Origin: a virus
Length of the DNA: 20,849 nucleotides
Virus record (IMG/VR): IMGVR_UViG_3300036835_000152
Strand: one strand, 5' to 3'
Part shown: piece after piece, positions 466 to 20,849 of the stretch
Layout of the letters: each line of letters begins with the position of its first letter
How positions within the stretch are numbered: the first letter of the stretch is position 1
Translations under genes and position numbers: made by a program
The notes under the pieces: generated by a model
The model's database searches: none
What the model was told of the DNA's origin: nothing
The model's input: only the letters and a program-made list of their open reading frames with translations

Positions 466-726
466 CTAGTCCTCGGGCGGCTCGATCGGGCCGGTTCGGT
501 CGGCCTGCTGTTGCTGCCCGGCGCGGTAGCCGAACACGGCGCCCAGGATGCCGATGATGCCGCCACCCCAGCCGGTGAGGATCTGTGTCGCGTTCTCCGA
601 CAGGCCCGAGTTCTCCGGGTTGGTGACTGCGTCGTACATGACCGCGAACGTCACCACGTTGAGCGCGGTGGACATGCCGACCGCCAATATCAGCGCGATC
701 CAGTCGCGGGAGGGTTGCACGCGCAT
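466..726 (-). CDS. Holin-like membrane protein (86 aa, two hydrophobic helices)
   Basis: Two hydrophobic helices (WIALILAVGMSTALNVVTFAVM and GWGGGIIGILGAVFGY) and a charged C-terminus. GGAGG RBS 7 nt upstream of the ATG. Lies immediately downstream of the lysin. Confidence 0.7.
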   Translation of the reverse strand: MRVQPSRDWIALILAVGMSTALNVVTFAVMYDAVTNPENSGLSENATQILTGWGGGIIGILGAVFGYRAGQQQQADRTGPIEPPED

Positions 727-823: not shown

Positions 824-1396
824 CTACTTGCCTAGGCGGTCGAGAATCTTGTCCACCTTGTCGTTGATGCCGTTCACCTGCCGTCGCAGGTCGGTGATGT
901 GCTGCTGCAGGTTCTCGGCCTCATCCTGCCCGGACTTGGCCCAGGTGTGGCCGTGCAGCACGGCGCTGGACAGTTCCTCGGGGGTGTCGTAATTCGCCAA
1001 CGGGTCTCCACCTCCTCCCACGCCAGGGATCTCCACATCGTTCACGTTGTCGGCCCATCCGGCATACGGCAGGCCCCAGGCCCGCTCGGGCCAGCCGAGA
1101 TCCACGGTGGCCACCTGCCCGGACCCGCCCGCGTCGGTGGACCGGATCCGGCCGCCGCCGACCGAGACCGCGATGTGCCCGTAACCCTTGCTGCCGCCGG
1201 TCCAATAGACCATGGCGCCGCGCGGCGGGTTCCGGTCGCCCTTGTGCCGGTGGAAGGCGTTACGCCAGGCGGTCGCCGCGTCGGGGAACAGCGAGCCGAT
1301 ATCGGCCCGTTCCCGGGACCATTGGAGGCAGTAGCCGGGGGAGTTGGTGTGCGAGGCTTCCGCGTTCTTGGCGGTCGCCTCGGCGTTCCTCACCAT
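824..1396 (-). CDS. Endolysin, CHAP/NlpC-P60-like cysteine peptidase with a C-terminal coiled coil
   Basis: Cys motif SPGYCLQWSRE, then PPRGAMVYWTGGSKGYGHIAVSVG (His). This Cys...His spacing is typical of CHAP amidase/peptidases. C-terminal heptad-like LQQHITDLRRQVNGINDKVDKILDRL. Adjacent to the holin. Confidence 0.8.
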   Translation of the reverse strand: MVRNAEATAKNAEASHTNSPGYCLQWSRERADIGSLFPDAATAWRNAFHRHKGDRNPPRGAMVYWTGGSKGYGHIAVSVGGGRIRSTDAGGSGQVATVDLGWPERAWGLPYAGWADNVNDVEIPGVGGGGDPLANYDTPEELSSAVLHGHTWAKSGQDEAENLQQHITDLRRQVNGINDKVDKILDRLGK

Positions 1397-2287: not shown

Positions 2288-3589
2288 TCAGCCGCTCGGC
2301 CACTGATCCCAGGTGATCCCCGCCGGGTAGGTGGGGGCCAGGTAGTTCCACCGCAACGATGCCGGTACGTCGGCCCAGCGGCCTTGGTTGGGCCGGGGGC
2401 CCCAGCATGTCGCGTCGTCCCAGGTGCCGGGTGCGGTGTCCCACGTCATTGCCGCGTCCACCTCATCCCATTGGGGTGGGGGTGCGGTCCGGCAGTACCC
2501 CGACACCGCCAACTCGATCAGGTGGCTGTCCCCGGTGATGGTCTCCTGCCAGCCCTCAACCCACAGCACCGCCGTGGTCGGCGCATCCCCGGCGTACGGC
2601 AGGCCCTCTAACTGCACCAGTTTGGTCATGTCCAGGGTCAGCAGCGCCCAGGTTCGGTCTAGGTCCAGGTCCAGCACGTCGATCGGCAGGCTGGCCATGA
2701 TCCACACCGGCTCGGAGTTGCGGACCAGCAGCAGTGACGCCATGGCCTGCGCGTCCGCGGCGGCCGCCAACTCGGTGGCCGCGGTGTACTGATACCGGCC
2801 GAACGCGGCTACCGAGGTCTCATCGGAGGCCAGGTAGCGCGGTTGCTCCCCGCCTTCCGGGGTGGGCCCGTAGCCGATCGACACGTCATTGACCAGCCCT
2901 TCCAGGGTGCGCCGCCAGGTGGGGGTTACTGACAGGTCGCAGGCATCCAGCACCAGCGCCACCACCGACGAATGCCGCCACAGCGCGTCACCATAGGAGA
3001 ACCAGCCGGTCCGGCCCTCCCACAGCACCCCACCGGCGGACTCGGCTACCGAGTGGATCAGGTCCAGCGCGGGCTGGCTGTCCACGTCGCGGGGCAGGAT
3101 CTGCACGGTGCCCGGGTCGGTCAGATACCAGGGTTGCTGTCCTTGGGTATACCCGGCTTCTTTCAGGATCCGGGACACCCGCTTGCCGTCGAGTTCCTGC
3201 GACCACGGTTTCGCGCCGACGACACGGCGCCCGAGGTCGGCCATCGCGGACACGGCGATGATCTGCGCCAGCACCGCGTTGGGGGTGTCCTCGTCGGCCT
3301 CGTCCCAGCCGATCGACACGTCGGTGACCTTGCCCGCGAACCGGGTGGCCCGGCGGCCTGCGGTGTCGTCTACGGATATCTGGACACCCCAGCCGATATC
3401 CAGGCCGGGCGGCAGTTGGTCAACGGTGCTGTCCAGGGACAGGTCCAAGGTGACGGTCATGGCCTCGGGCTGGCTGTCGGCGTCGTCGCGGCCGTACTTG
3501 ACCGAGATCGTGTCCACCAGGCAGGCGTAGTTGGTGGCCGGGGCCTGCCCCGGCGGGTACAGCCACACATTCCAAGTCCCGGCGGTCAT
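2288..3589 (-). CDS. Minor tail protein, distal-tail (Dit)-like (433 aa)
   Basis: ATGA overlap with the tape measure stop, which is the canonical position after the TMP. The N-terminal beta-rich region resembles siphovirus tail-family proteins. Assigned by synteny and general sequence character. Confidence 0.65.
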   Translation of the reverse strand: MTAGTWNVWLYPPGQAPATNYACLVDTISVKYGRDDADSQPEAMTVTLDLSLDSTVDQLPPGLDIGWGVQISVDDTAGRRATRFAGKVTDVSIGWDEADEDTPNAVLAQIIAVSAMADLGRRVVGAKPWSQELDGKRVSRILKEAGYTQGQQPWYLTDPGTVQILPRDVDSQPALDLIHSVAESAGGVLWEGRTGWFSYGDALWRHSSVVALVLDACDLSVTPTWRRTLEGLVNDVSIGYGPTPEGGEQPRYLASDETSVAAFGRYQYTAATELAAAADAQAMASLLLVRNSEPVWIMASLPIDVLDLDLDRTWALLTLDMTKLVQLEGLPYAGDAPTTAVLWVEGWQETITGDSHLIELAVSGYCRTAPPPQWDEVDAAMTWDTAPGTWDDATCWGPRPNQGRWADVPASLRWNYLAPTYPAGITWDQWPSG

Positions 3590-5559
3590 GTCGCCAGCCC
3601 GACCCGCCGGTCGTGTCCGGCGAGGATGCGCCGGATCTGCCGGGCGGTCGCCTCGGGGTCGATCGCGCCGGTGACGTTGATAACCACGCTGCCGCCCGCG
3701 GGGGCACCGGTGGCGGCCCGGCGGCCGGTGTAGGCGCCGCGGGGCACCGCGGGCGCCGTGTAGGCCCGTCCGGCGCGGCCGACCACGGTGGGCGCCGGGG
3801 TGGGCGCCACCGCCTTGAACGGGTTCAGTTTGCCGATCGCGCTACCCACGTCGGGCACCTTGATCTTGCCCAGCCAGTCGATCAGCGACCGGACGGCGGA
3901 GATCGCAGAATCGACCGCCGACTTGATCGCGTCGAACGGCGCCGACACGGCCGACCCCACCGAGCGGGCCGCGGACTTGATCGCGTTGAACGCGGTCGTG
4001 AACAGGTTGCGGACGGCGTTGGCCACGGTGCTGGCCACCGACCGGATCCCGTTGAACACCGACTTGATCACCGACACCTGAGACCGGACCACGGCGGTGA
4101 TCGCCCGCCACGCGGCCGACCACAGCGCCTTCACCGCCCGGGCCACCGCGGACCCGGCGGCCTTGATCGCGTTGAACACCGACCGGAACACCGAGGCCCC
4201 GGCCCGGGCGGCCGCCGAGACCGCCCGCCAGGCGGAGCGGAACACCGCCGAGATCGCCCGCCCGGCGGCCTGCGCCCCGGACTTGATGACCCGCCACCCG
4301 GCCGCTAGTACCGCTTTCACCTTGGACCAGTGCTTGATGATCATGGCCACGGCCAGGCCGAACGGGCCCGCCAGGATCGTCAGCAGCAGCGGCCACCGGC
4401 GTTTGATCCAGTTCCACACCGCCATGCCCGCGGCCTTGATCCCGTTCCACGCGGCGGTGATCGCGGACCACGCGCCGGTGAACACCGCCACCATGACGTT
4501 GGCCGCCGCGGTGGCGCCGGTCCTGATCGCGGACCACACCGCCATGACCACGGCCCGGAAGGTCTCCGACTTGCGCCACAGGATCACCACGGCCGCCACC
4601 AGCGCGATCACCGCCGCGATCACCAGGAAAATCGGGTTCGTGAGCCAGGTGGCTTTTTGGACGGCGCCGACCACCACCAAGGTGGCTTGGTAGACCTTCA
4701 GCGCGGCGTTGATCACCAGCACCGCGGACGCCACCGCCAGGATCGCCCCGGCGATGATCTGAAACGCGGTGGTGTTCTTGGACACCAGGTTGGCCAGCCC
4801 GCCGAGTGCCGTGGACAGTGCCGCCACCACCGGCAGCAGCGCCGTCCCGAGGTTCGATTTCATGTTCTCGTATTGGGCGGCCGCGATCTGCGCGGCCCCG
4901 GCCGCCGAGTCCGACTCCCGGGCGAACTGCCCTTGTGCGTCGGCGGTCTGCTTGTTCACCAACTCCAGCAGCGCCATGGTCTTGGCTTGCTTGCCCGCGG
5001 CGCCGGTCAGTTTGTCGGTGCCGTCGGCGGCCTGCTGTGCCGCTATGTCGGCCTGCTTCACCGACACGCCGTACCGCTCGATGGGGTCGGTCTCGCCGCG
5101 GAACGCCGCGGACAGCGCCTCCACCGCTTCGGCGGTGGTGCCGCCGTAGGTGGCGGCCAGGTCGGCGCCCAGGGTGATCAGGTCATTGGTCTGCCCGGCC
5201 ACCTGTTTCATGGGCAGGCCCATGTTCTTCAGTTGGGCCCCGAGCACCGAGGCGAGTTCCCCGTACTCGGATTTGGCCAGGCCCACCGAGGTGGCGGCCC
5301 CGGCGGCCCATTTCTTGACCTGCCCGGCGTTGCGGCCGAACACCGAATCGACGGCGCCCATGGCTTGCTGGGTCCGGGATGCGGAGTCGATCGCGGCCTT
5401 CCCGAACGCGGTGATGCCCGCGACCGCGGCGGCCGCGGGCACGGTCAGTTTCGACATTTTGGCGCCGAACCGGTCCAGTTTGCCGCCCGCGGAGTCCAGG
5501 CCCGCGGCGCCCTTCGAGTAGTCGGTGACGATCCGGACCACCAGCAGCGCATCAACCAT
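3586..5559 (-). CDS. Tape measure protein (657 aa)
   Basis: Long Ala/Gly-rich helical protein with central hydrophobic segments and many roughly 11-residue repeats (F.AIKSA.., W.AI...). Position is after the chaperone gene and before the Dit-like gene. Confidence 0.9.
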   Translation of the reverse strand: MVDALLVVRIVTDYSKGAAGLDSAGGKLDRFGAKMSKLTVPAAAAVAGITAFGKAAIDSASRTQQAMGAVDSVFGRNAGQVKKWAAGAATSVGLAKSEYGELASVLGAQLKNMGLPMKQVAGQTNDLITLGADLAATYGGTTAEAVEALSAAFRGETDPIERYGVSVKQADIAAQQAADGTDKLTGAAGKQAKTMALLELVNKQTADAQGQFARESDSAAGAAQIAAAQYENMKSNLGTALLPVVAALSTALGGLANLVSKNTTAFQIIAGAILAVASAVLVINAALKVYQATLVVVGAVQKATWLTNPIFLVIAAVIALVAAVVILWRKSETFRAVVMAVWSAIRTGATAAANVMVAVFTGAWSAITAAWNGIKAAGMAVWNWIKRRWPLLLTILAGPFGLAVAMIIKHWSKVKAVLAAGWRVIKSGAQAAGRAISAVFRSAWRAVSAAARAGASVFRSVFNAIKAAGSAVARAVKALWSAAWRAITAVVRSQVSVIKSVFNGIRSVASTVANAVRNLFTTAFNAIKSAARSVGSAVSAPFDAIKSAVDSAISAVRSLIDWLGKIKVPDVGSAIGKLNPFKAVAPTPAPTVVGRAGRAYTAPAVPRGAYTGRRAATGAPAGGSVVINVTGAIDPEATARQIRRILAGHDRRVGLAT

Positions 5560-6010: not shown

Positions 6011-6382
6011 CTAGGCCCCTTCCACGGTCCCGATGATCCGGACCAACTCGGCCCGGTAGTAGTTGATCCACACGCCCTCGGTGTCCTCCGCGGCCGGGCG
6101 CAGGTAGGGCTGTGCCGCGATGTGGTGGCCGGGCCACCCGTACTCCTGCACCCCGGCATAGACCCGGCTCGACGCGGCTTCCGCGGTGGCGCCGGTGTGG
6201 CTGGCCCGGATCGACCCGGCCAGCGCCCCGGTGTGCTTCGGGGCCCGGCCTTGGGCCCGGACCCGGATCAGGTTGGCGGCCTGCTCGGTGGCGTTGTCCA
6301 TGTGCGCCAGTTGGTCGGCGGCACGGTGCAGCGTGGCGGCCAGGCGTTCCCGGCCGACCACCTCCGCTACCTGTCCGGTCAC
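6011..6382 (-). CDS. HK97 gp10-family head-tail/neck protein (123 aa, GTG start)
   Basis: GTGA overlap with the upstream stop. Motif RAPKHTGALAGSIRA...YAGVQEYGW...AQPYLRPA is characteristic of the HK97 gp10-like family. Confidence 0.75.
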   Translation of the reverse strand: MTGQVAEVVGRERLAATLHRAADQLAHMDNATEQAANLIRVRAQGRAPKHTGALAGSIRASHTGATAEAASSRVYAGVQEYGWPGHHIAAQPYLRPAAEDTEGVWINYYRAELVRIIGTVEGA

Positions 6383-6855
6383 GCGGGCACCGGCTCGGCC
6401 TCGGGCTCGGCCTGCGTCCCGTTCCCGGCGGCCTGCGACCCGTAGGTATAGGCGGGCTTCCCGACGATCGTGAACTCGAAATCCGAGGTCATGGTTTCGG
6501 TGGTCTCGTCGCCACCGAAATCGAGCGGGTCGATCACCAGGGTGCCGGTGGCTGTGGTGCCCGCGTCGGTGTTCGGGGTGAACGTGAACGGTTGCTCGGT
6601 GCCGGGCGCATCCTGCGACAGCGCGAACAGTCCGGCCGGGTCGTCCACGTCGGTATCGACGTTGCCGGACAGGCTGTAGGTGTAGGTGACCGCGCCGGGC
6701 CGGACGGTGCCGCACAGTTTCGTGGTCGAGTCGCCCTCGTCCTTGTCGGCACTGATCGTCGCGTTGTTCACCAGGCAGGACACGTCGATCTCGGTCCCGG
6801 TCTCCCCGATCGTCAGGGTGCCCGGGCCCAGGGGGTAGGTGTCGCCAGCGGCCAT
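6379..6855 (-). CDS. Major tail (tube) protein candidate (158 aa)
   Basis: Strong AGGAGG RBS. Beta-rich, T/D/G-rich sequence typical of actinophage major tail proteins (GTLTIGETGTEIDVSC...YTYSLSGNVDTD...FTFTPNT). Its position before the gp10-like gene is atypical. Confidence 0.55.
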   Translation of the reverse strand: MAAGDTYPLGPGTLTIGETGTEIDVSCLVNNATISADKDEGDSTTKLCGTVRPGAVTYTYSLSGNVDTDVDDPAGLFALSQDAPGTEQPFTFTPNTDAGTTATGTLVIDPLDFGGDETTETMTSDFEFTIVGKPAYTYGSQAAGNGTQAEPEAEPVPA

Positions 6856-7253: not shown

Positions 7254-7570
7254 GCCAGCACCTGCCGTCGCCAGGCCCGCTCATGTTCCTCCACCAGTGA
7301 GTCGAGATACGGCAGCGCGGTGGGCCCGTACTCGGAGGCGTCCAGCCCGACCATGCCCAACGGCAGGTTGCGGGCCGCGGCCTCCCGCTGGATCCGGCGC
7401 AGCAGCGCCTGCGCGAGCGCGTACGGGTAGGCGCCCTCGGGCCAGGCGCACCGGGCGGTCTGATCGTCCATCGCCGCGCCGCGCATCCGCTCCAGGTCCT
7501 CATCGGACAGTTGCGCGGCCGGGACTTTCAGGTACGCCCGTACCTCATCCAACGTCGGGATCTCGGCCAC
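7250..7570 (-). CDS. Head-tail connector (gp6-like adaptor, 106 aa, GTG start)
   Basis: Immediately follows the capsid gene. The N-terminal PTLDEVRAYLKVPAAQLSDEDLERM pattern is typical of gp6-like head-tail connector proteins. Confidence 0.7.
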   Translation of the reverse strand: MAEIPTLDEVRAYLKVPAAQLSDEDLERMRGAAMDDQTARCAWPEGAYPYALAQALLRRIQREAAARNLPLGMVGLDASEYGPTALPYLDSLVEEHERAWRRQVLA

Positions 7571-7580
7571 GGTCCGGCCC

Positions 7581-8813
7581 CTACTTGCTGGCGGACTTGG
7601 CCGACGCGCTAGCCGCGGAGGTGTCGCCGCCGAGGCCCGAGATCGGGGTGAACAGGTCCGGCTTGGTGTTCAGGAACGCGCCGTACCCGGCGTAGCCGAC
7701 CAGTTGCCCGAGCACGTTGGGCTCGTCCACGTACAGGAACCCGTCCACGTCCTCATACCACTCCAGATAGGACGAGACACCGACGATCGCGGTCCCGGCG
7801 GTCAGCCACGGATCCACCACCAGGCGCAGGCCCAGCGGGTTGCCCGCGGTGGCGGTGGGGGTGACCGACGGGAACGCGGGCACGCCGTTGTCGTTGGTCA
7901 TGGAACCGAGCGCGCCCCACACGTCGGGGGAGGCCCACATCGTGTCGGGCAGCGGGGCGCCGTCCGCGGTGCCCATGATCTGCGCGGCCGCCTCAAACAC
8001 GGCCGCCCGGACCCCGGCGCCGTCCGCGGTGGCCGCGGCCACCGGCGGGTTGGTGATCGATGCCAGGAACTGCGCTACCGCGTCCTCGTCGGTCGCCTTG
8101 GCGTACTCGTGCCCGAAATCTGCGAACAGAATCTGCATGATCGCGGGCTCAGACCACTTGATGTCTTGCCGCGACACGTTGAGGTGCCCGGCGTAGGTGG
8201 TCGCCGTCACCGGCAGTTTGCCGACCTTCAATTGCCGGGATGCGGTCTCGGCCTTCTCAGCCGGTTGCTTGTCCACCGCGACGTGTTGGGTGATCGTCGG
8301 CCGGTCAAACGATCCGGTGGGCAGCGTCCGGTTGGTGATCGACCGGATGAACGGCCGCTCGTTCCCCACCGCGGTGATCACCGGCCCGAGGATGGGCCGC
8401 GGGATCAGGCCCGGGTTGTCGGCGGTGGTCTGATGCGCGGTGGCCCGGGCGATGCGCTCCCCGGCGTCCTTGTCGCCCTTCATGGCCCGGATCACGGTGA
8501 CCGCGTAGTCCCCGGCGGTCGGGAACATGTCTTCCAGGCTCGGCGGGTCCTCCGGTGCGGCCCGCTCGGTCCGCGGCACGGTCCGCACCGAACGGCGCAA
8601 CTCGCGCACCCGGTCGGTCTGCTCGGCCAGGCCGGTGTAGTGCTCGATCGCGGTTTGGAGTTCCGCCAGCCGGGTCCGGTCCCGGTCAACCTGCTGTTGC
8701 TCGGCGTCGGTTACGTCGCGGTCCTCGTCGGCGGCCCGCTGTACCAGGGTCTCGATGCCCTCGGTGATCTCGTCGTACTGATCGTTCAGCCGGTCCAGGT
8801 AGGTGGTGGGCAT
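7581..8813 (-). CDS. Major capsid protein, HK97 fold with an N-terminal delta/scaffold-like coiled coil (410 aa)
   Basis: The first ~100 aa are a charged coiled coil. They are followed by an HK97-family core (PGLIPRPILGPV...FIRSIT...GSFDRP...YAGHLNVSRQDI...VDPWL...). Confidence 0.92.
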   Translation of the reverse strand: MPTTYLDRLNDQYDEITEGIETLVQRAADEDRDVTDAEQQQVDRDRTRLAELQTAIEHYTGLAEQTDRVRELRRSVRTVPRTERAAPEDPPSLEDMFPTAGDYAVTVIRAMKGDKDAGERIARATAHQTTADNPGLIPRPILGPVITAVGNERPFIRSITNRTLPTGSFDRPTITQHVAVDKQPAEKAETASRQLKVGKLPVTATTYAGHLNVSRQDIKWSEPAIMQILFADFGHEYAKATDEDAVAQFLASITNPPVAAATADGAGVRAAVFEAAAQIMGTADGAPLPDTMWASPDVWGALGSMTNDNGVPAFPSVTPTATAGNPLGLRLVVDPWLTAGTAIVGVSSYLEWYEDVDGFLYVDEPNVLGQLVGYAGYGAFLNTKPDLFTPISGLGGDTSAASASAKSASK

Positions 8814-8847
8814 AGCGCGACCCGTCCTAGGTGTGGGGATTCCTAGG

Positions 8848-8930
8848 CCGGGTGGCGGCTTGCGATCTACGGACCCCGGGTGGCGGCTCGGTGGCCGGGT
8901 GGCGGGTGAACGTCGCGCCGGGTGGCGGCT
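8848..8930. repeat. Four direct copies of CCGGGTGGCGG(C/G)T in the leader upstream of the capsid gene
   Basis: Copies at 8848-8860, 8876-8888, 8895-8907 (one mismatch) and 8918-8930. An adjacent CCTAGG-N10-CCTAGG hairpin lies at 8826-8847. Confidence 0.85.
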
Positions 8931-8946
8931 CTCCTGCGCACCGACG

Positions 8947-9312
8947 TTACGCCGGGTCGCCGGGGTCGTCTAGGGCCTCGCCGATCCGGGCACCATTCGC
9001 ACCAGTAGCGTCACGGTCCTGACACTGTTGGCACGCGGCCATGCCGCCACAAGTACAGCCGTCCTCAATCGCCGTGACACCGGGCGGAATGACACGCTCC
9101 CATGGCTCGCCCGGTTTGCGGCGTGCGAGCGTGATCCGGTCGGGCGCGTACTCGCGTGCGGCGTCGTCCGCGTCGCGTTGTGCCTGTTCCCGTTGGGTTC
9201 TGCCGTTCCACCGCTCCGAGACGGACCCGTCGCTGAACATGACGCCATAGCGGTAACCGTCCGGCGCGAGGTAGTTCCGGGGCGCGTCTTTCTCGGCGGT
9301 GTGGTCCGGCAT
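8947..9312 (-). CDS. Hypothetical protein (121 aa) with a Cys-rich C-terminus, orphan in the head module
   Basis: ORF with lower GC and more A/T-ending codons than its neighbours. Contains CTCGGMAACQQC. No recognisable family. Confidence 0.55.
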   Translation of the reverse strand: MPDHTAEKDAPRNYLAPDGYRYGVMFSDGSVSERWNGRTQREQAQRDADDAAREYAPDRITLARRKPGEPWERVIPPGVTAIEDGCTCGGMAACQQCQDRDATGANGARIGEALDDPGDPA

Positions 9313-9321
9313 CCCGCCACG

Positions 9322-10047
9322 CTAGGGCCTCAGTCGGAACCGGGCCAGTAGCGCCCGGTGGTCCGAGTGGGTGCGGATCGTCCAGGCCCGGTCCAGCCGG
9401 ATCCGCGGGTCCCGCTTCCACCACACGTAGTCAACCGCCCGGCGGCCGTGGGTGGGCAGCCAGCCGCGGGCCCGGTGGGTGTTGGTCCAGCCGCGGGCGT
9501 ACAGCGGCCCGAGGATCCCGGTGTGGTCGGGCTCGGTGTTGAAATCCCCGACGATGAATCTCAGCCCGTACCGGCCGTCCACAGCGGCCGCCAGCCGCCG
9601 GACGTGCCGCACCGCCACCGCATGCCGCCGGGGCCGGTAGGACGACGGCACCAGGTGGGTGTTGGCCACCACCCGGGAGCGCCACAGCATCCCGCCCATC
9701 GCGTATTTCGGTTTCGCGGTGCTCGGCCCGTTCCCGGGGCCCACGTAGGTCCGCGGCAGCAGCGGTTTCCCGAACGGGTGCCGCATGGCTACCGCCCGCG
9801 GGTTCCACACCAGCGGGGTGGCGGACTGGCCGCGCAGACCCCGCCCGGCCTGCACCCGCCACCCGGCGGCCTTGGCGGTGGCCACCAGGCCGGGCCGGTC
9901 GCCCCACTCCTGCGCGCCGATCACGTCGGCGCGGCGCATGATCTGGCGCAGGTCCTCCCGGGTGCCGTGCGCGCCGGGGTTCCAGGTGGCCAGCACCAGC
10001 ACCAGCGGGGCCAGGTGCCGGACTAGCGCCGGACCGACTCCAGCCAT
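9322..10047 (-). CDS. Endonuclease/exonuclease/phosphatase (EEP, DNase I-like) family enzyme (241 aa)
   Basis: Full EEP motif set in order: LVLATWN, VIGAQEW, ANTHL, GDFN, VDYVWW, SDHRAL. The start is taken at ATG 10047. The upstream part of the 404-aa ORF overlaps the protease in another frame. Confidence 0.85.
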   Translation of the reverse strand: MAGVGPALVRHLAPLVLVLATWNPGAHGTREDLRQIMRRADVIGAQEWGDRPGLVATAKAAGWRVQAGRGLRGQSATPLVWNPRAVAMRHPFGKPLLPRTYVGPGNGPSTAKPKYAMGGMLWRSRVVANTHLVPSSYRPRRHAVAVRHVRRLAAAVDGRYGLRFIVGDFNTEPDHTGILGPLYARGWTNTHRARGWLPTHGRRAVDYVWWKRDPRIRLDRAWTIRTHSDHRALLARFRLRP

Positions 10048-10595
10048 GCGGCCAGCGCCTCGCGCCGCGGCGTCGGTGACGGCGCCACGGTCAGGGTGTG
10101 CTCGCGGGCCACCAGCACCCCGGCCCCGGCGTACTGAGGTGCCGCGGTGGCCGCCACATGGGACAGCCCGCACTGTTCGCGCCACACCACCCGCTGCCCG
10201 TCGCCGCGCGGCACCGAGCGGGACCGGTACACCCGCGCGGACACGCTCCAGCCGGTCAACTCCCCGGCCCGGGCGGCCTCCGCCTGTGGATGCCCGCGGT
10301 CGATGCGGAACGTCGGATACAGGCCCTCGGCGGTCTCCTCCAGCGCGACACAGCGACCGAGGTACCGGTCCCCGTCGTCCCCGACGTGCCCGAGCATCAG
10401 GTTGACCCACCGGCCGCCCTTGGTGCAGTCCCGGGCGAACGCGCCGGGGGTGAACGCCTCCAGGTAGGTCTCCCGGCCGTCGTCGGTCACCTCCTGCGGT
10501 CGACTGTACGGCACGGCCAGGCCGTAGACGGTCCACCCGTCGCCTTGCGGTTCCAGCGCCGGGGCCGCCCGTTCGATGATCAACTCATCCGGCAT
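10023..10595 (-). CDS. HK97-family prohead maturation protease (190 aa)
   Basis: YLEAFTPGAFAR...VNLMLGHV and a downstream S-containing core match the HK97 prohead protease pattern. Follows the portal gene with an 11-nt overlap. Confidence 0.9.
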   Translation of the reverse strand: MPDELIIERAAPALEPQGDGWTVYGLAVPYSRPQEVTDDGRETYLEAFTPGAFARDCTKGGRWVNLMLGHVGDDGDRYLGRCVALEETAEGLYPTFRIDRGHPQAEAARAGELTGWSVSARVYRSRSVPRGDGQRVVWREQCGLSHVAATAAPQYAGAGVLVAREHTLTVAPSPTPRREALAAWLESVRR

Positions 10596-11832
10596 CGGCG
10601 GTCACCTCCTCCGGGGTCAACTCGGGCACCCCGGCCGGGGTGCCGCCCTCCTCCTGCGTGGTGTCCATCGGCGGCCGCCCGATCGTGGCCCGGGCCTCGT
10701 CCACGTCCAGGATCCCGGCGTCCACGTAGGTTTTCAGCACCTCCGAGGTGGTTTTCTGATCGGCCCGCATCCGGCCCGCGTAGTCCCACGCCACGGTGGT
10801 CCCGGCGGGCATCAGCCACTTGGAGAACGCGGCCACGATCGGCGCCGCGTACCGGTCCACCGAGTCCCGGACGAACTCGATATCGGCGGTCTCGATGTTC
10901 TGATACGTCATGCTCGGCCCGGCCAAACCGAGTTTGTACGACGGGATCCCCAGCATCATCGCCACCGCCGCGGCGTTCCACTGCCGCGACTCCACCAACT
11001 GCGCCTGCTCGGCGTTGGACACCACCGGGGTCAGCACGTAGCCCGCGGGCAACACCACCGGCTCGCGGGTGGAGGTCATTTCCCGCCACTTGGATTTCAA
11101 CTCGTCGGCCTGCGCCTGCGTCAGCGTGACCGGACTGGACAGCACCGCCGGGGGCAGCGCGCCGCCCGCGAAATACTGCCCGGCGTGTTCCTCGGCGGCC
11201 ACCGAGCCGCCCAGCCATTCGGCGTACTGGCGCAGCACCCCGCGGCCCAGCACCTCCCCGGACCGGTTGCCCGCAGTGACATGCAGCATGTCGGCCCGGT
11301 CGATCACCTCACCGGCGATCGTCCAGGCGTACCAGCCGGGGTTGGCCGGGTCGGTGATGATCCACACCTCATCGGCGGGCAGCGGCACCAGGTAGCGCGG
11401 CCAGAATCCGAACGCCGTGTCCGGCTCGCCGTACAGCGCGAAATGGTTCCCGTACAGGATTAGGTCCTCCGCGAGACCCCACCGGTAGGCCCACACGGTG
11501 GTCTCGTCGCCGGTGGTGTTGGTGAGGATCGCCGGTTGGTCCGGCCGCCGCACCGACACCCCGAGATCGGCGTCCCAGCGCATCGCCCGCCATTCGGTGC
11601 CCGCGATCGCGTTGCACAGCAGCGCCACCCCGCGGCCGAACGGCGGCAGGCCCAGCGCCTCCTGCTCGGTCGCCGGGTATGGGCCGTCCGGGTACGGGTC
11701 GCCGGTCAGGAACGCCCACGATCCGGGCGGGGACAGCCCGGCGGGGCCGGTGGCCCGCGGCGGCCGGACCAGGCCGCGGCGCCGGGTGCCGGTGGCGGGC
11801 CGGGAGGTGAGGGCTCGGGGTCGGGGTGGCAT
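10585..11832 (-). CDS. Portal protein, HK97 family (415 aa)
   Basis: Typical motifs: LILYGNHFAL, EHAGQYFAGGALPPAVL, LKSKWRE, REPVVLPAG, QLVESRQWNAAAVAMMLGIP. Confidence 0.93.
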   Translation of the reverse strand: MPPRPRALTSRPATGTRRRGLVRPPRATGPAGLSPPGSWAFLTGDPYPDGPYPATEQEALGLPPFGRGVALLCNAIAGTEWRAMRWDADLGVSVRRPDQPAILTNTTGDETTVWAYRWGLAEDLILYGNHFALYGEPDTAFGFWPRYLVPLPADEVWIITDPANPGWYAWTIAGEVIDRADMLHVTAGNRSGEVLGRGVLRQYAEWLGGSVAAEEHAGQYFAGGALPPAVLSSPVTLTQAQADELKSKWREMTSTREPVVLPAGYVLTPVVSNAEQAQLVESRQWNAAAVAMMLGIPSYKLGLAGPSMTYQNIETADIEFVRDSVDRYAAPIVAAFSKWLMPAGTTVAWDYAGRMRADQKTTSEVLKTYVDAGILDVDEARATIGRPPMDTTQEEGGTPAGVPELTPEEVTADAG

Positions 11833-11835
11833 GGC

Positions 11836-12045
11836 TCACCGCTTCCGGTTCTTGCGCAGCGACGGGTACCGCTTGGTGACCGCGGCCCGGACAGTCTTGG
11901 CCGACCCGGCGGTGTCCCGGCGCGCCGAGTAGGCGAGCGCCGCCCGGGCCCGGGCCTTGGTGTCGATCGGGTACTTGCGTTTCGACGGCAGCGCGAACGC
12001 CGACCTCGGCAGCGCCTTCCGGCGCTTGGCGCTCAACCGGCCCAT
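11836..12045 (-). CDS. Small basic protein (69 aa) with an LPRSAFALPSKRKYPI motif
   Basis: ATG at 12045 overlaps the upstream stop. The stop lies 4 nt before the portal ATG. The LP.SAFA...RKYPI...A..AL motif recurs in small phage head-module proteins. Confidence 0.6.
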   Translation of the reverse strand: MGRLSAKRRKALPRSAFALPSKRKYPIDTKARARAALAYSARRDTAGSAKTVRAAVTKRYPSLRKNRKR

Positions 12046-12407
12046 GGCGATTCTGAGGCCCTTTCAGGATCCCGGTGGGCAGACATACCGGGGTGGGGCT
12101 GTACGGCCGTCCTAGGCGCCTCTGCGACAGCGGGAATGGCCGTTCTACGGTCCTGCCTCCCCGCCGTGGATACGTGCCCGTGCCAGATACCGCGGTCGTC
12201 GGCCCACATGCCCAGCGCCGTCATTTCCTCTAGGGTCCGGCACCGGCGCAGGCCCTCGGGCCAGTACGGGCCGATCCGGTGAGCATCGCTCGGTCTCGTG
12301 CTAGCGAACGTCCGGTGACATTCGGTGCAGTGTTCTTGCCTGCCCCGGAACGTCGCGCCGCACCCCGCCCGGCCCGAACACATACCCGGTGCGCCCATGG
12401 CGCCCAC
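12033..12407 (-). CDS. Zinc-binding protein resembling the FDXHR family (about 121-124 aa)
   Basis: CSGRAGCG...HCTECHRTFASTRPSDAHR...RRC pattern. GGGAAGG RBS (complement of 12411-12417). Start is either GTG 12407 or ATG 12398. Confidence 0.6.
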   Translation of the reverse strand: MGAMGAPGMCSGRAGCGATFRGRQEHCTECHRTFASTRPSDAHRIGPYWPEGLRRCRTLEEMTALGMWADDRGIWHGHVSTAGRQDRRTAIPAVAEAPRTAVQPHPGMSAHRDPERASESPWAG

Positions 12408-12424: not shown

Positions 12425-14473
12425 TCAGAACACGTAGAACGGCTGTGGCGCCTCGGTCTCCGCCGCCACCACCGCCACCGCCCAGGCGGTCGCCTTCACC
12501 GCGTCACAGCGCACCCCCCGGTGCGCCGGGGCCAGGCCCCCGTCCGCGTGCGCCGCCCAGCGGGTGCCACACACCTGCCCGGCCACGTCCTCGTCGGGTG
12601 AGTGCACCAACCGCCCCGACCGGACCAGCGACCTCAGCAGCGCCAGGCCCCGGCGGGCCCGGTCCGGCGCCTGCACCACCACCTCGGGCCCCAGGTACCC
12701 GGCGGCCTCCGACGCCGACAGCGACGGTCCCAGCACCACCACCGGGCCGATCTCGCGGCGGCCGTCGCCACGCATCGACGCGCCCGCCCAGGAGAACGCA
12801 TCCGCCCGCGACCCGAACGCCGCCCCCCAGGTCAGGATCCGCCCATCCGGGAGCACGGTGGCGGCCGCCGCCGACGCGCCCCTCCCGTACCAGTCCTCCA
12901 CCGCCACCGCCACCGGACGGCCCTCCGACGGCGCCGCATACAGGTCCGCCGCCTGCGCCCACTCCTCCCGGGACACCAGCACCTCGGGGGTGGAGGTGGA
13001 CGGCACCCACCGGCGCACCGGCCACACGTTCAGGTACTGCGCCCGGAACGCCTCCACCGGGTCGTCCTCGTCCGGGTCCTCCGACGCGCCCGCCCGGGCC
13101 CGGCGCAGCCGCGCCTCCAGCAGCCGCTCCCGGGTCGGCGTCCAATGCGGGGATGCCTGCCGCCAGCCGATCCGGTCCGCCAGGTCCGCGTCCCGCGGCG
13201 CCGACCACTCCAGCAGCAGCGACGACGACGGCGAGGAATACCCGGCCAGCAGCGCCGCCCGGCGCACCGGCACCAGCGCGGTGGCCCGCCGGTGCGCCGT
13301 CGAGAACATCACCAACTGCGCGTTCGCATGCTCGGCCAGCGTCGGCTCCAGGCCGTCCTCCACCACCCCCGGCGCCACCTTCCACACCTCGTCGGCCAGC
13401 GCCAGCGTCGCCGAATACGAGTACACCGAGCCGTGCCCGCGCAGCAGCCACCGAGACCCGTCCGGGTGCCCGATCTCCTCCTCGCCGTTGGACTCCCGCA
13501 CCGGGTAGCCCTGCTGCCGCGCCCACAGCCGCGCCGGACGGGTCACCTCCCGGGTCACCTGCCGGTCCTTCGCGGTGTGCAGGATCAGTTGCTCCTCCCC
13601 GAACACCTCCGAGGCGTGCAGCCGCCACAGCGCCAACTGGCGCAGGAACACCGACTTCCCCACCTGCCGGGCCGTGGACACCAGCGCATCCATCCACACC
13701 AGTTGGCCCTCCGCGTCATGCTCCAGCAGCCGGGCGAACGCCAGCCGCTGCCACCAGCGCAGACCCCACCCCCGCTCCAGACACCACGCCACCGCCGCCG
13801 CCCCATGCGACCCCGCCGCATCCGGGTGCGGCAGCGACATCAGCCGCGGCCACGTCGCACTAGGCGGCACCTCCCGCAAATCATCGAGCCACGGCGACGA
13901 ATCCCAGACCGAATCCTCAGGACCCGGCGTAATCACCGGCGGCTCGATATCGGTCGGCTCGAATTGGTCTATGGGGGAGGAATTGTCAGCCGGAGCGCCC
14001 TGGGAAGTCGAGGCCGCCGTCAAAAACCGGGCGCCGTTCTGCGCATTGTCGTCCACGATTTCGCCGCGTTGGTTGTCCCATTTCCCGGCTAGTGCTGCCT
14101 TGCCTGCGGCGTAGATCGCTTGGCTCAGTTCGCGTCCGGCTTTGCGGTTGCAGTGCGCATGGGCTGGCCGTATGTCGGGGGACCGGCCGCCGAGTGCGAC
14201 GGGTTCGCCCACGTGGTCTAGGTCCCAGGGTTCCCAGGGTTGTACGGGGTCGGGGCAGCGGGGGCATGGCTGGGGCAGGCGTTGCTGCCAGCGGTTGCGG
14301 AGTTCGGCCCATTCTCGGCCGTTGATGGGTCGGCCTGCGATGACTCCGGATCCCATGGTTGCCGATGATGCTCCGGTTTGGCGGGCCTGTCGATTCTCAC
14401 AACCCATTATCCGATTCGACCGTGTAGTGCGTCGTCGCGCGCGAACGGTGACGGAACAGACCGCATCGACCAC
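12425..14473 (-). CDS. HNH endonuclease domain fused in frame to the terminase large subunit (up to 682 aa)
   Basis: N-terminal CPRC...WDLDHVGEPVALGG...AHAHCNRKAG (HNH, about 14135-14266). Then a Walker A STARQVGKS (about 13652-13672) and a terminase ATPase/nuclease body. No stop codon separates the two parts. The start is uncertain (GTG 14473, ATG 14407 or ATG 14356). Confidence 0.85.
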   Translation of the reverse strand: MVDAVCSVTVRARRRTTRSNRIMGCENRQARQTGASSATMGSGVIAGRPINGREWAELRNRWQQRLPQPCPRCPDPVQPWEPWDLDHVGEPVALGGRSPDIRPAHAHCNRKAGRELSQAIYAAGKAALAGKWDNQRGEIVDDNAQNGARFLTAASTSQGAPADNSSPIDQFEPTDIEPPVITPGPEDSVWDSSPWLDDLREVPPSATWPRLMSLPHPDAAGSHGAAAVAWCLERGWGLRWWQRLAFARLLEHDAEGQLVWMDALVSTARQVGKSVFLRQLALWRLHASEVFGEEQLILHTAKDRQVTREVTRPARLWARQQGYPVRESNGEEEIGHPDGSRWLLRGHGSVYSYSATLALADEVWKVAPGVVEDGLEPTLAEHANAQLVMFSTAHRRATALVPVRRAALLAGYSSPSSSLLLEWSAPRDADLADRIGWRQASPHWTPTRERLLEARLRRARAGASEDPDEDDPVEAFRAQYLNVWPVRRWVPSTSTPEVLVSREEWAQAADLYAAPSEGRPVAVAVEDWYGRGASAAAATVLPDGRILTWGAAFGSRADAFSWAGASMRGDGRREIGPVVVLGPSLSASEAAGYLGPEVVVQAPDRARRGLALLRSLVRSGRLVHSPDEDVAGQVCGTRWAAHADGGLAPAHRGVRCDAVKATAWAVAVVAAETEAPQPFYVF

Positions 14474-15195: not shown

Positions 15196-15642
15196 TTATC
15201 CGGGTGGTTGCGGCTCGGGCTCGGGTTGTCCGAGGGCTTGGTAGATCGTGGTCTGCCCGGGCGGCACGATGGGGGCTTCGGGGGGCCTCGGTTCGCGGCG
15301 CGGCACCTTGGACGGCCGCCGGGTGCGGTGGTGGGCGTAGTCGGTGGTGGCCAGGGTCTCGGGGTTGATGGATGCGAGCGCCAGGCGGCCTCGGACGGGC
15401 CGGGATGCGAGCACCGGTGCGGCCCCGGCGGCGTCGGCCAGGTCGGCCAGTTCGGCGCGTTCGGCGTAGGACAGGCGGCCGGATATCTTGCAGGACACGA
15501 TCACCGGCGGGTGTCCGGCGCGGAGTGCGACGAGATCGGCGGGCCCCAGCGATCCGGCGGAGCGGACCACCAGCCACCCGGCGTCGGTGAACACGTCGCG
15601 GGTCTGCCGCTCGAAGTAGTCGCCGCGGGTCCGGTTGCTCAC
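15196..15642 (-). CDS. Holliday junction resolvase, Hjc-like PD-(D/E)XK (148 aa, GTG start)
   Basis: GDYFERQTRDVFTDAGWLVVRSAGSLGPADLVAL...VIVSCK matches the archaeal-type Hjc resolvase motif order (E...D...xK). GTGA overlap with the RecT stop. Confidence 0.75.
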   Translation of the reverse strand: MSNRTRGDYFERQTRDVFTDAGWLVVRSAGSLGPADLVALRAGHPPVIVSCKISGRLSYAERAELADLADAAGAAPVLASRPVRGRLALASINPETLATTDYAHHRTRRPSKVPRREPRPPEAPIVPPGQTTIYQALGQPEPEPQPPG

Positions 15643-16691
15643 GGCGCACCCCCGGGCCCGTCGTGGACGTTCATGGTGCCGTCATCGTTGAGCGTGAAAT
15701 ACGCCTCGCCGGTGACGATCCGGTCGAGCGCCGACAGCACCCGGTAGCCGTCGTCGCGGGTGAGATCGTTGGTGGAGTCGATCCGGTGCCCGACGATCGC
15801 GGAGCACAGCGCCAGGCGTTCGGAGCGGGTCGCCACCGACCCCAGCACCTCCCCGAGTTTCGCGTGCAGCGCGCGCAGCGGCCGGACCCCGATGGGTACC
15901 GGCTCGGGCGGTGGCTCGCCCTCGGTGGGCGGCTCGTCGTCGGGCGGCTCGGGCAGCGGGGTGTCTTCCACCGCCGGGGTGGGGTCCATCGGCGCCGGGC
16001 GTTTGGGCGGCCGCGGGTCGTCGGTGGCGGTGCCGTACCGGGATTGGTCGGGCGGCGCGATGGGGGGGCGTTCGATCGCGGCGGGCTCATGCTTGCGCTG
16101 CCGCCTGATCGGGGCCCGCGGCTCGGGGTCGGCGGCCTCGGGGGCCACCTGATCCCAGCCGGGCCAGTCGGCGGCCTCCTCGGCCACGTAGGACAGGCCC
16201 TTCACCACGTCGGAGAACAGTGCTCGGGCGAGGTCCCCGGTGGCCCGGGCCAGCAGCATGGCGCGGGGGTACCGCTGCCAGTTGGGCCGGTTCAGCAGCC
16301 CGGCGGCGCGGGCCATGTCGATGGACCACTCCACGACCATCCGCTCGGACTCGGGGGCGCCGCGGCGCAGGCCCGCGACCCGCACCCGGGTGCCGGACAT
16401 TTCGAGCACGGTCAGGGTGTGCCCGTCGCGGAGGATCAGCGCCCGCATCAGTTCCGCGGAGGGTTGCGGGCGGCCCTCCACGACGTGGATCCCGGCGAGG
16501 GCTTGCATGGGCCCGATTCGCAACTCGTCGCCGTACATGATCGCGGCGGTGATCACGTCGGGCTTGCCGCGCATCGCAGTGGGCACGAATTCGGTGTTGG
16601 CGATCCGCTCGGCCAACTGGCTGGCGGGCACCAGCACCGAGGCCCAGCGGGCCAGGCCCGCGTCCGCGGGCTCGATCGTCGCCATGCTCAT
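15639..16691 (-). CDS. recT: RecT-family single-strand annealing recombinase with a Pro-rich linker and an extra C-terminal domain (350 aa)
   Basis: The start is set at ATG 16691 (ATGA overlap with the exonuclease stop). RecT-like core: GKPDVITAAIMYGDELRIGPMQALAGIHVVEGRP...EWSIDMARAAGL...NWQRYPRAMLLARA. The C-terminal ~90 aa form a separate helical domain. Confidence 0.85.
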   Translation of the reverse strand: MSMATIEPADAGLARWASVLVPASQLAERIANTEFVPTAMRGKPDVITAAIMYGDELRIGPMQALAGIHVVEGRPQPSAELMRALILRDGHTLTVLEMSGTRVRVAGLRRGAPESERMVVEWSIDMARAAGLLNRPNWQRYPRAMLLARATGDLARALFSDVVKGLSYVAEEAADWPGWDQVAPEAADPEPRAPIRRQRKHEPAAIERPPIAPPDQSRYGTATDDPRPPKRPAPMDPTPAVEDTPLPEPPDDEPPTEGEPPPEPVPIGVRPLRALHAKLGEVLGSVATRSERLALCSAIVGHRIDSTNDLTRDDGYRVLSALDRIVTGEAYFTLNDDGTMNVHDGPGGAP

Positions 16692-17485
16692 GCCGACACC
16701 TCGCCCTCGGACCAGTCGGGCAGCGGGGCGCCTACCGAGTCCCGGGCTTCCTTGGTGACCCATTCCGCGACAGCGGCACAGTGCAGGAACCGGCCGTAGG
16801 CGGCCTCGGAGGCGTTGACGGGCACCAACTGCACCCCATCGGGCCGGACCCACACGACGGCGGCCTCATCGGTGGGCGGCATCAGCAGCACCCGGCCGCC
16901 GATCTGGATGTGGGAGGCGTGCCGGTAGGCGGCCAACTGGAGTGAGTCGGTGTCCCGGACCCCGGACGCGGCTGTCTTGTAGTCCAGCAGCCAGCGGCGC
17001 CCGTCGCCCATGTCCGCGATCAGGTCGAGCCGACCGGCCCACCAGTGTGTTTGGTGGAACACGATCGCCTCGTGTACGACGGGCTCGACCCCGCGCGCGT
17101 CCAGGAACCGGGCCAGGTGCCCGGCCATGTCCAGCACCTCGGGCGGCAGCGGGGTGCCGTCGTCGTCGCGGTCCCCGACCGGCTCGCCGTACACCAGCCG
17201 CTCGGCCACGGTGTGCAGTTGCCTGCCGAGATCGCCACCCGCGTCCCGTACCCGGTCCGGCGCCTTGGCCGCGGTCTCGATCCACACCTGTTCCCCGAGG
17301 CTGGCCAGGCCCTCGGCGTTGGTGGCGCACCATTGTGCGGCGGTGCGGGCCGCCCAGGCGATCAGGAACGGCTTCCCGATCGCCTTGTTGAGAATCGTGG
17401 TCACCCCGGGGCAGTAGCGCCCGTCCAGTGAGTAGGTGTGGCGGCGCTCGTTGAACACCACCCGCTCAGTTGTCTGCTCGATCAT
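16688..17485 (-). CDS. PD-(D/E)XK exonuclease (RecE/RecB-like partner of RecT, 265 aa)
   Basis: HTYSLDGRYCPGVTTIL N-terminal motif, GRLDLI...LLDYKT (D...D/E-x-K) and QLAAY (QxxxY). Confidence 0.8.
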   Translation of the reverse strand: MIEQTTERVVFNERRHTYSLDGRYCPGVTTILNKAIGKPFLIAWAARTAAQWCATNAEGLASLGEQVWIETAAKAPDRVRDAGGDLGRQLHTVAERLVYGEPVGDRDDDGTPLPPEVLDMAGHLARFLDARGVEPVVHEAIVFHQTHWWAGRLDLIADMGDGRRWLLDYKTAASGVRDTDSLQLAAYRHASHIQIGGRVLLMPPTDEAAVVWVRPDGVQLVPVNASEAAYGRFLHCAAVAEWVTKEARDSVGAPLPDWSEGEVSA

Positions 17486-20821: not shown

Positions 20822-20849
20822 GCGGATCCTTCCACGGTGGCCCCGCGGT
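20723..20849. repeat. Second copy of the 127-bp terminal overlap (identical to 1-127)
   Basis: Exact identity with the window start. Confidence 0.97.

Follow-up and report, generated by a model that had tools for sequence, protein, structure and literature searches.

What is an enzyme of the EEP family doing in the head-gene block of a small phage? The question is raised by a stretch of viral DNA of 20,849 nucleotides (nt), IMG/VR virus record IMGVR_UViG_3300036835_000152 (hereafter, the window, i.e., the whole stretch that was analyzed), in which an EEP-fold phosphoesterase gene and an open reading frame (ORF) of 121 amino acids (aa) are located between the prohead protease and the major capsid genes. 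The original prediction, which was made from the letters of this DNA, described the two as extra genes at this position; their order and coordinates are correct, and all genes involved are on the minus strand. We find that the two genes are an insertion at a recurrent cargo hotspot. Based on comparisons with related proteins, we propose that the EEP protein may be a late-expressed, envelope-directed phosphodiesterase that serves as a lysis helper rather than as a DNase, a proposal to which we give an even chance of being right.

A recurrent cargo slot between the protease and capsid genes

The minus-strand gene order is portal, S78 protease, EEP, 121-aa ORF, gap and HK97-type capsid, with the following coordinates:

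10585-11832, minus strand: portal protein, 415 aa (Pfam Phage_portal, 1.9e-49; phrog_12, 4.6e-49)
10023-10595, minus strand: prohead serine protease, 190 aa (Peptidase_S78, 7.7e-4, 20.1 bits with a cut-off of 21; phrog_80, 2.5e-5)
9322-10047, minus strand: EEP-fold phosphoesterase, 241 or 226 aa
8947-9312, minus strand: accessory ORF, 121 aa
8814-8946: repeat-bearing gap of 133 nt upstream of the capsid gene
7581-8813, minus strand: HK97-type major capsid protein, 410 aa (phrog_2263, 9.3e-43; Pfam Phage_capsid_4, 8.4e-10)

The window proteins were searched by tblastn against related loci (designated by L numbers), 54 of which have both the protease and the capsid. The portal, protease, capsid and downstream genes are conserved and syntenic in related loci, the protease being 50-74% identical to the syntenic gene in 50+ of them and the capsid 49-63% identical across 62 IMG/VR loci, many of which are on contigs of 21-23 kb. 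No orthologues of the EEP and 121-aa genes were found at this position in the 62 IMG/VR loci or in a Microbacterium helvum prophage. Of the 54 loci, 22 have 147-201 nt between protease and capsid, 12 have 240-560 nt and 20 have 642-1205 nt; the M. helvum prophage also has the short spacing and neither of the cargo genes. Thus, as had been predicted, the EEP and 121-aa genes are an insertion and not part of the head-module core, and in the window phage both were horizontally acquired. The presence of an EEP here is, however, not a one-off event, since a homologous EEP fills the slot in 12 relatives.

The protease-capsid site is a recurrent cargo hotspot. In relatives it houses Mom-family proteins (1e-28 to 1e-30), a Dam methyltransferase (9e-9) and collagen-repeat proteins (L049 3355-4062, L053 1045-1830, L024 5343-5864, L042 897-1538 and L058/L059 for these three kinds of cargo), as well as several small uncharacterized proteins. 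The L030 slot contains two small minus-strand ORFs, one of which is ribbon-helix-helix-like by eye. If the slot is seen as one that generally holds DNA-directed or anti-restriction cargo, as the presence of Mom and Dam would suggest, the window EEP could be a phosphodiesterase acting on nucleic acids or nucleotides, with host or competitor DNA or RNA as the substrate, or with a function in TDP2-like adduct repair or in destruction of a signalling nucleotide. We consider such a function unlikely, though to be taken seriously. The gene is part of a late structural operon, while host-DNA degradation and anti-defence functions are usually early; further evidence on both sides is presented below.

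The commonest cargo of the slot is a family of 245-250 aa proteins, A2, which is present in 12 loci. A2 has no Pfam match. Comparison of a 27-member A2 profile with a 51-member profile of the clade to which the window EEP belongs, performed with hhalign, returned a probability of 98.1% and an E value of 7.8e-14 over 213 columns at 15% identity, and the Glu, His, Asp-x-Asn, Asp and Asp-His positions are kept between the two. There are 117 A2 clusters in a large database, many of them on 20-24 kb contigs, and A2 is therefore the usual EEP of this lineage. The A2 gene is followed by a gene for a conserved single-transmembrane protein of ~46-57 aa (GRPWLDLxIAxLGSGTGSFxLGVVVGYRWARRR; found in L016, L018, L021, L027, L032-34 and L038-39, e.g., L038 1858-1998). 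The usual slot cargo is an "EEP plus small membrane protein" cassette, and the window holds the non-membrane 121-aa ORF instead of the latter. The closest relatives of the window EEP (43-49% identity) are found in unrelated phages; it thus follows that the window slot shows non-orthologous replacement by another EEP. An EEP at the protease-capsid position is a recurrent, lineage-typical accessory. A 235-aa cargo protein of L011 was considered as a third EEP type, which is unproven (13.8 bits, hhalign probability 15%). An Rfam search of the L032 and L038 inserts returned no match.

A scan of positions 7400-10700, which covered sigma-70-type sites only, revealed neither a sigma-70-like promoter nor a minus-strand terminator. 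A classical moron with its own promoter and terminator was considered and rejected, as no flanking signals were found and the cargo abuts or overlaps the protease gene. The same observations bear on the idea that the EEP is a lysogenic-conversion or toxin-like factor (of the sphingomyelinase, CdtB or phospholipase type) expressed from the prophage to the benefit of the host. The EEP superfamily does take in sphingomyelinase C and CdtB, with weak profile matches (E 0.05-0.6), and the phage is temperate, as judged by its large serine recombinase (19406-20821). Yet there is no promoter-like or terminator-like site flanking the cargo, the contact with the protease gene makes the EEP gene look like part of the late operon, a signal peptide is lacking in the protein, and soil actinobacteria are the probable hosts. 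We regard a conversion factor as very improbable.

The EEP enzyme, its clade and its candidate role

The EEP protein matches Pfam PF03372 (Exo_endo_phos) at 1e-10 (42.2 bits, cut-off 24.5); the match spans residues 29-230 of the protein and positions 18-225 of the 225-position profile. All six motifs listed in the original prediction (TWN, QEW, THL, GDFN, DYVWW and SDH) are present in the translation, in that order. The composition of the gene is native, with a G+C content at third codon positions (GC3) of 0.93-0.95 and native-like codon bias. Its ATG at 10047 does fall inside the 3' end of the protease gene, by 25 nt (the protease stop codon is at 10023-10025), as claimed earlier, but the start is ambiguous because a metagenome gene caller (entry P0001) begins the gene at GTG 10002, which yields 226 aa, and because homologues align only from residue 16 onward. 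In the AlphaFold2 model, the predicted local distance difference test score (pLDDT) is ~50 over the first ten residues.

For the whole model, the pLDDT is 86.3 and the predicted template modelling (TM) score is 0.85. Foldseek comparison of the model with PDB entries gave 163 matches at E<=1e-3, the 50 listed at the top being EEP proteins without exception; the best match had an E value of 7e-12, a probability of 1.0 and a TM score of ~0.70. The four-layer alpha/beta-sandwich fold characteristic of EEP proteins is thus confirmed at the level of the predicted structure. The nearest solved folds are those of an uncharacterized Bacteroides EEP (3mpr), TDP2, CNOT6L, nocturnin and ANGEL2, at 12-15% identity. 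Such identity, together with a TM score of ~0.7, does not discriminate between substrates. A profile search of solved structures returned nocturnin (2.8e-4), SHIP (0.009) and sphingomyelinase C (0.048), which are weak matches that assign no subfamily, while a sequence search of solved structures with the single EEP protein returned no relevant match. Neither search returned DNase I or AP endonuclease at E<=1, and no match to the EEP was found in NCBIfam or PHROGs. The profile search and structure prediction that had been recommended earlier thus confirmed the family and the fold and assigned no subfamily; of the "EEP-family (DNase I-like)" description, the first part holds and the second is not specifically supported. 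TDP2, CNOT6L and nocturnin are nucleic-acid or nucleotide phosphodiesterases, and their presence among the top structures, along with nocturnin as the best profile match to a PDB sequence, speaks for a nucleic-acid substrate and against an envelope-directed one. The similarity is, however, generic and at the level of the fold only, and the very best match is the uncharacterized Bacteroides protein.

In alignment A4, which comprises 51 diverse clade members, residues N23, E47, H131, D168, N170, D206 and H230 show no variation, and the conservation of S228 and D229 is 90% or higher. Cellular EEPs (TDP2, CNOT6L/CCR4, nocturnin, sphingomyelinase C and Bacteroides 3mpr) have the same fold and the same Asn/Glu/His/Asp/Asn/Asp/Asp-His constellation and are only 12-15% identical to the window protein. 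As far as can be judged from this conservation, the active site is complete and the EEP is probably catalytically intact, in agreement with the original prediction; the protein would carry out Mg2+-dependent phosphodiester hydrolysis. It has no signal peptide and no recognizable attachment or targeting domain in its 241 aa.

We searched 1.84 billion representatives with a profile of the EEP clade and retrieved 881 relatives (designated by P numbers), 68 of them at E<=1e-30. The clade is phage-restricted. A scan of 185,579 species genomes with EEP alignment A1 found no relative. Two motifs, GPGxGPxxxKPK and THGxRxID, mark the clade and are present in the window protein and in P0050, P0103 and P0118; both are features of the clade alignment. 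Most members are stand-alone proteins of 225-260 aa, and 21 of the best 150 exceed 300 aa. Twenty multidomain members were scanned for additional domains: Amidase_2 was found in five, GH25 in four, NlpC/P60 in one and a weak Peptidase_M15_4 in one. Peptidoglycan hydrolase domains are thus present in 11 of the 20 proteins and a recognized nucleic-acid domain in none, which argues against a nucleic-acid substrate. The tail lysin-like P0050 has an EEP domain that shares 37% identity with the window EEP over the full length of the latter, and the EEP domains of the endolysin-like P0103 and P0118 share 32-33% with it.

Gene neighbourhoods of clade members point the same way. P0050 consists of an EEP domain, a linker and an NlpC/P60 domain and is encoded in a tail module, after a presumed tape-measure gene (687 aa, so called by size and position) and a gene for a 161-aa protein; judged by this gene order, it would occupy a tail-lysin position. 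P0103 (Amidase_2 plus EEP) is the last gene of a late operon, and its amidase shares 45-50% identity with lysin A domains of actinophages. Two genes whose products have N-terminal transmembrane segments come before P0118 (EEP plus GH25). Endolysin genes are the immediate neighbours of two stand-alone homologues, which again is at odds with a nucleic-acid function: P0047 begins at the stop codon of an Amidase_2 gene, and P0005 directly follows a Peptidase_M15_4 gene and precedes genes for small proteins that have two transmembrane segments and one, respectively. P0004 has homologous small membrane proteins and a beta-helix tailspike-like protein after it, and the gene after the EEP in L003 and L076 encodes a small transmembrane protein. 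All clade contexts seen but one are late-gene contexts, so that lysis or virion functions fit better than early host takeover; a Citrobacter phage "tail fiber" with an EEP domain was also returned from BFVD. At the family level, then, clade members are fused to or located beside peptidoglycan hydrolase or holin-like genes. These fusions, and the contexts beside lysins, holins and tail lysins, suggest an envelope-directed enzyme that acts together with lysins and holins or with tail lysins. The roles considered earlier (nuclease, destruction of a signalling nucleotide, lysogenic conversion, ejected protein) omit the envelope role that the clade fusions and neighbourhoods favour.

Two further observations were made on clade contigs. 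On the very short contigs of P0010 and P0011, a C-terminal EEP fragment (…SDHRAV…) precedes a full EEP domain, and several representatives show two matched EEP stretches, which suggests tandem EEP genes or wrap-around assemblies. Contigs with endolysin-EEP fusions carry DUF6221 and Gp80-family genes nearby (L079 4208-4570 and 8787-9092; L080 10379-10786).

Location of the EEP gene between the protease and the capsid invites another explanation, namely that the protein is virion-associated, either packaged in the head or attached to the particle and acting at infection, or serving as a late modifier of the capsid or virion surface. P0050 and P0165 belong to large tail-type proteins, and collagen-like proteins occupy the same slot in relatives. 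A precedent for enzymes within the head-gene block comes from Cluster O mycobacteriophages such as Corndog, in which an O-methyltransferase and glycosyltransferases are inserted between the genes for the portal and the protease (PMC4351075). Cluster O phages are also the nearest cultured relatives of the window phage by capsid (29.5% identity for Corndog); they differ in the point of insertion, in genome size (~70 kb) and in that their transferases are thought to modify the virion. Corndog's inserted enzymes were, however, not detected in virions (PMC4351075). Moreover, the window EEP is a stand-alone protein that lacks a recognizable attachment or targeting domain, no capsid phosphodiester substrate is known, and Mom and Dam in the same slot require no virion association. 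We consider a virion-associated function quite unlikely.

The envelope-directed phosphodiesterase that we propose would be made late in infection, being co-transcribed and probably translationally coupled with the portal and protease. In the absence of a signal peptide, its access to the wall would depend on permeabilization of the membrane by the holin. It may then cleave a phosphodiester-linked component of the envelope. Because the chemistry of EEP proteins is phosphoester hydrolysis, phosphodiester-linked wall glycopolymers or their linkage to peptidoglycan are plausible targets; candidate substrates would be a teichoic-acid-like anionic wall glycopolymer and its muramic acid linkage and, less likely, a phospholipid. 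In this way the EEP might aid the single-domain CHAP-type lysin in dismantling the wall, or it might destroy receptors on cell debris. The window has the following candidates for a lysin and a holin:

824-1396, minus strand: CHAP/NlpC-P60-like lysin candidate, 190 aa (Pfam CHAP, 4.5e-5, below cut-off; phrog_12298, 2.6e-16)
466-726, minus strand: putative holin-like protein, 86 aa, with two hydrophobic segments in the translation, downstream of the lysin candidate

A number of observations weigh against an envelope-directed function. The window EEP gene is ~8 kb away from these two candidates and outside a lysis cassette or tail module, and the evidence from fusions comes from relatives that are 32-37% identical and not from the window protein, in which no substrate-specific feature was identified. 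In Streptomyces phages Celia, Itza, Urza and VieEnRose, the EEP is gene 4, beside the genes for an HNH endonuclease and the small terminase subunit and far from endolysin gene 28; its position between the former two also favours a nucleic-acid substrate. P0046, a close homologue, has a gene for an Acb2/Tad1-hairpin anti-defence protein four genes downstream, the sole context that hints at anti-defence. Finally, Mom and Dam, which occupy the same slot in relatives, act on DNA. Because of this evidence, we hold the envelope-directed reading to be evenly poised between true and false.

The closest analogues in terms of function are GDPD modules, which were found in tail-associated lysins of Gram-positive phages in an enterococcal survey (PMC10194240). 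There, too, a phosphodiesterase is joined to or located beside peptidoglycan hydrolases (endopeptidase, NlpC/P60), and the presumed targets are phosphodiester-linked wall polymers. In contrast to GDPD, which is a TIM barrel, EEP is a four-layer alpha/beta sandwich; the hosts are actinobacterial, the window copy is stand-alone and encoded in the head module, and the function of the EEP clade is a predicted one. The second analogue is LysB of mycobacteriophages, a mycolylarabinogalactan esterase encoded beside lysin A. LysB is likewise a second lytic enzyme directed at a non-peptidoglycan envelope linkage, lacks a signal peptide and is often encoded right after the endolysin, as are P0005 and P0047. 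It is, however, a cutinase-fold serine esterase acting on an ester bond in mycolata, while the EEP would hydrolyse a phosphodiester. Bacteria of the genus Microbacterium have no mycolic acids, and the closest genome-anchored relative of the window phage is a Microbacterium prophage.

Celia, Itza, Urza and VieEnRose are the only cultured phages in 50,697 records that have a member of the clade, and an IMG/VR scan with the EEP alignment returned only Celia. Their proteins, annotated as "hydrolase" or "phosphoesterase", are 44-45% identical to the window protein over 93% of its length. Celia gp4 resembles it in being stand-alone (~235 aa) and encoded in a late, rightward operon. It differs in that its gene is at the left end of the genome, with HNH/tRNA genes on one side and the small terminase subunit gene on the other, and in that the 50-kb phage is unrelated and has a different head module. 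In a limited literature search, we found no link of EEP/Exo_endo_phos domains to endolysins, an absence that is weak evidence.

The slot border, the accessory ORF and the rest of the genome

The gap that separates the cargo from the capsid gene carries the following elements:

8929-8918, minus strand: direct repeat (A/G)SCCGCCACCCGG, copy 1
8906-8895, minus strand: copy 2, with one mismatch
8887-8876, minus strand: copy 3
8859-8848, minus strand: copy 4
8826..8847, minus strand: hairpin CCTAGG-N10-CCTAGG, directly after the fourth repeat and 12 nt upstream of the capsid ATG

The gap had been predicted to be 133 bp long and repeat-bearing; it is 133 nt long, it has four repeats, and their presence is non-random. 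With one mismatch at most, GCCGCCACCCGG occurs 8 times in the window with 2.2 occurrences expected, and 4 of the 8 are clustered in 8814-8946. The array, which spans 8848..8929, is a conserved cis element that forms the downstream border of the cargo slot. Essentially all relatives have such a gap, of ~150 nt, ahead of the capsid gene, and cargo is located upstream of the array in the loci examined. Four or five motif copies were found in 40 of 51 distinct upstream regions, with the consensus (A/G)SCCGCCACCCGG and variants CAGCCACCCTG and CGGACACCCCG; the array is at the same pre-capsid position in L007-L068 and L073. In short, four CCGCCACCCGG copies plus a hairpin are found upstream of the capsid gene lineage-wide. 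Cluster O phages have no CCGCCACCCGG array and carry a different 17-bp palindrome that is scattered genome-wide.

In a 31-sequence alignment, the CACCC cores are invariant, whereas the spacers are not conserved and the capsids are only 50-63% identical. The copies are mostly 19-25 nt apart, which is about two helical turns. Each copy has 3-bp palindromic flanks (CNG..CN'G) whose middle pair covaries, being paired in 75% of cases vs. 50% in shuffled sequences. Relatives have an equivalent, covarying hairpin with a different stem sequence (mean z-score -1.67 for 44 distinct sequences, with 41% below -2), and the Shine-Dalgarno sequence and the capsid ATG come after it. The array could provide protein-binding sites on DNA, or it could be a protein-binding and stabilizing leader on capsid mRNA. 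Three other possibilities were considered and set aside. As anti-Shine-Dalgarno decoys, the repeats are weak candidates (the complementary stretch averages 4.3 nt vs. 3.1 nt in shuffled sequences and is at least 6 nt long in 16% vs. 6%). Folding of the whole gap into one strongly structured RNA is not supported (z-score -1.1), and the long-range helix that RNAalifold draws between repeats 2 and 3 probably arises as an artefact, because the copies vary in concert. Rfam returned no match for the gap.

The 121-aa ORF stands out by its composition. As had been predicted, its G+C content is visibly lower (68.0% vs. 74.7%); its GC3 is 0.76 vs. 0.93-0.95, and its codon-bias score is 0.06 vs. 0.5-0.65 in core genes. 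Contrary to the original prediction, it is no orphan: homologues form 34 clusters that share an N-terminal domain of ~65 aa (NYxAPDGYRYGVMFxDGSV...ITLARR), which is 50-74% identical among them. This domain mostly occurs as stand-alone proteins of 67-95 aa in non-structural regions of actinophage-like contigs, where the genes adjoin those for Lsr2, WhiB, PD-(D/E)XK proteins and methylases. Pfam, PHROG and NCBIfam searches with the 121-aa protein gave no match. The AlphaFold2 model of the N-terminal domain, with a pLDDT of 80-92, predicts a small alpha/beta unit, and a fold search with the 121-aa protein gave no match at E<0.2. By these sequence relationships, the gene appears to be a mobile small actinophage gene. 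Its C-terminus carries a CxCx5CxxC cluster. The C-terminal sequence GCTCGG(M/V)AACQQCQDRDA (window 8947-9099) recurs in an otherwise different protein, the 179-aa P0044, which suggests that the Cys4 motif is a separately mobile small module.

A terminal direct repeat of 127 nt at 1-127 and 20723-20849 indicates that the window is a circular assembly of a complete genome of ~20.7 kb. The G+C content is ~70% genome-wide, and nearly all coding-like ORFs (GC3 >0.85) are on the minus strand. The phage is a small temperate siphophage of high-GC actinobacteria. The M. helvum prophage, with a capsid that is 61% identical, is the sole close capsid match among scanned reference genomes, and the host assignment rests on this match. 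The capsid protein has an N-terminal delta-like coiled coil. Other features of the genome are as follows:

19406-20821: large serine recombinase, the basis for calling the phage temperate
18405-18926, plus strand: C2H2 zinc-finger protein, 173 aa (zf-C2H2_4, 3e-8), near the integrase and on the opposite strand
16688-17485: PD-(D/E)XK nuclease
15639-16853: RecT-like protein
15196-15642: Hjc-like resolvase
12425-14473, minus strand: large terminase with an HNH-like N-terminus
12033-12407: small FDXHR zinc-binding protein, between the terminase and portal genes
11836-12045: DUF6582 protein, between the terminase and portal genes
Downstream of the capsid gene: connector genes
6379-6855: major tail protein
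3586-5559: tape measure protein
Between the tape measure and the lysin candidate in transcription order: tail protein, 433 aa

The lineage, one of unusually small temperate siphophages, carries a serine integrase, a RecT and PD-(D/E)XK pair and an Hjc resolvase. The C2H2 protein resembles eukaryote-type zinc fingers and is a candidate DNA-binding regulator. The terminase ORF, when read from its first start, has an HNH-like motif (CPRCP...DHV...HAHCN) in the N-terminal ~120 residues, and PHROG terminase matches start near residue 205; the ORF is either an HNH-TerL fusion or two unresolved genes.

Significance of the EEP clade and of the slot

"Phosphoesterase" EEPs in a few Streptomyces phages, enzymes within the head block of Cluster O phages and GDPD-fold phosphodiesterases in lysins are known already. 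What appears to be new is a phage-restricted EEP clade that is recurrently fused to or located beside endolysin and tail-lysin domains. Also apparently new are a protease-capsid slot that is filled by two EEP versions only 15% identical to each other and a four-repeat array that bounds this slot. A broader proposal, to which we give somewhat less than an even chance, is that the clade may constitute an unrecognized class of phage lytic modules, wall-polymer or linkage-unit phosphodiesterases that actinobacterial phages would employ as parts of endolysins and tail lysins and also as late enzymes standing alone. According to this proposal, the need of the ~21-23 kb lineage for an EEP would be frequent enough for both versions to have been installed in its slot, and the slot-bounding array of four hairpin-like CACCC repeats may be a new cis-regulatory element that controls capsid expression.

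Amidases, peptidases, muramidases, transglycosylases, GDPD modules and LysB make up the lytic repertoire that is known from phages, and the EEP clade, if it is indeed envelope-directed, would add a new catalytic module to it. This would also suggest that a phosphodiester-linked wall component is a real barrier to lysis or entry in actinobacteria without mycolic acids, and the EEP domains would provide engineerable parts for lysins against actinobacteria. If the EEP is instead a nucleotide or nucleic-acid phosphodiesterase, an explanation would be required for the fusions with lysins. The comparison of loci is of use whichever reading holds: a minimal temperate genome of ~21 kb has a defined hotspot that alternately holds EEPs, Mom, Dam and collagen-like genes, and next to this slot is a repeat array that is strongly conserved and whose possible regulatory function can be tested directly.

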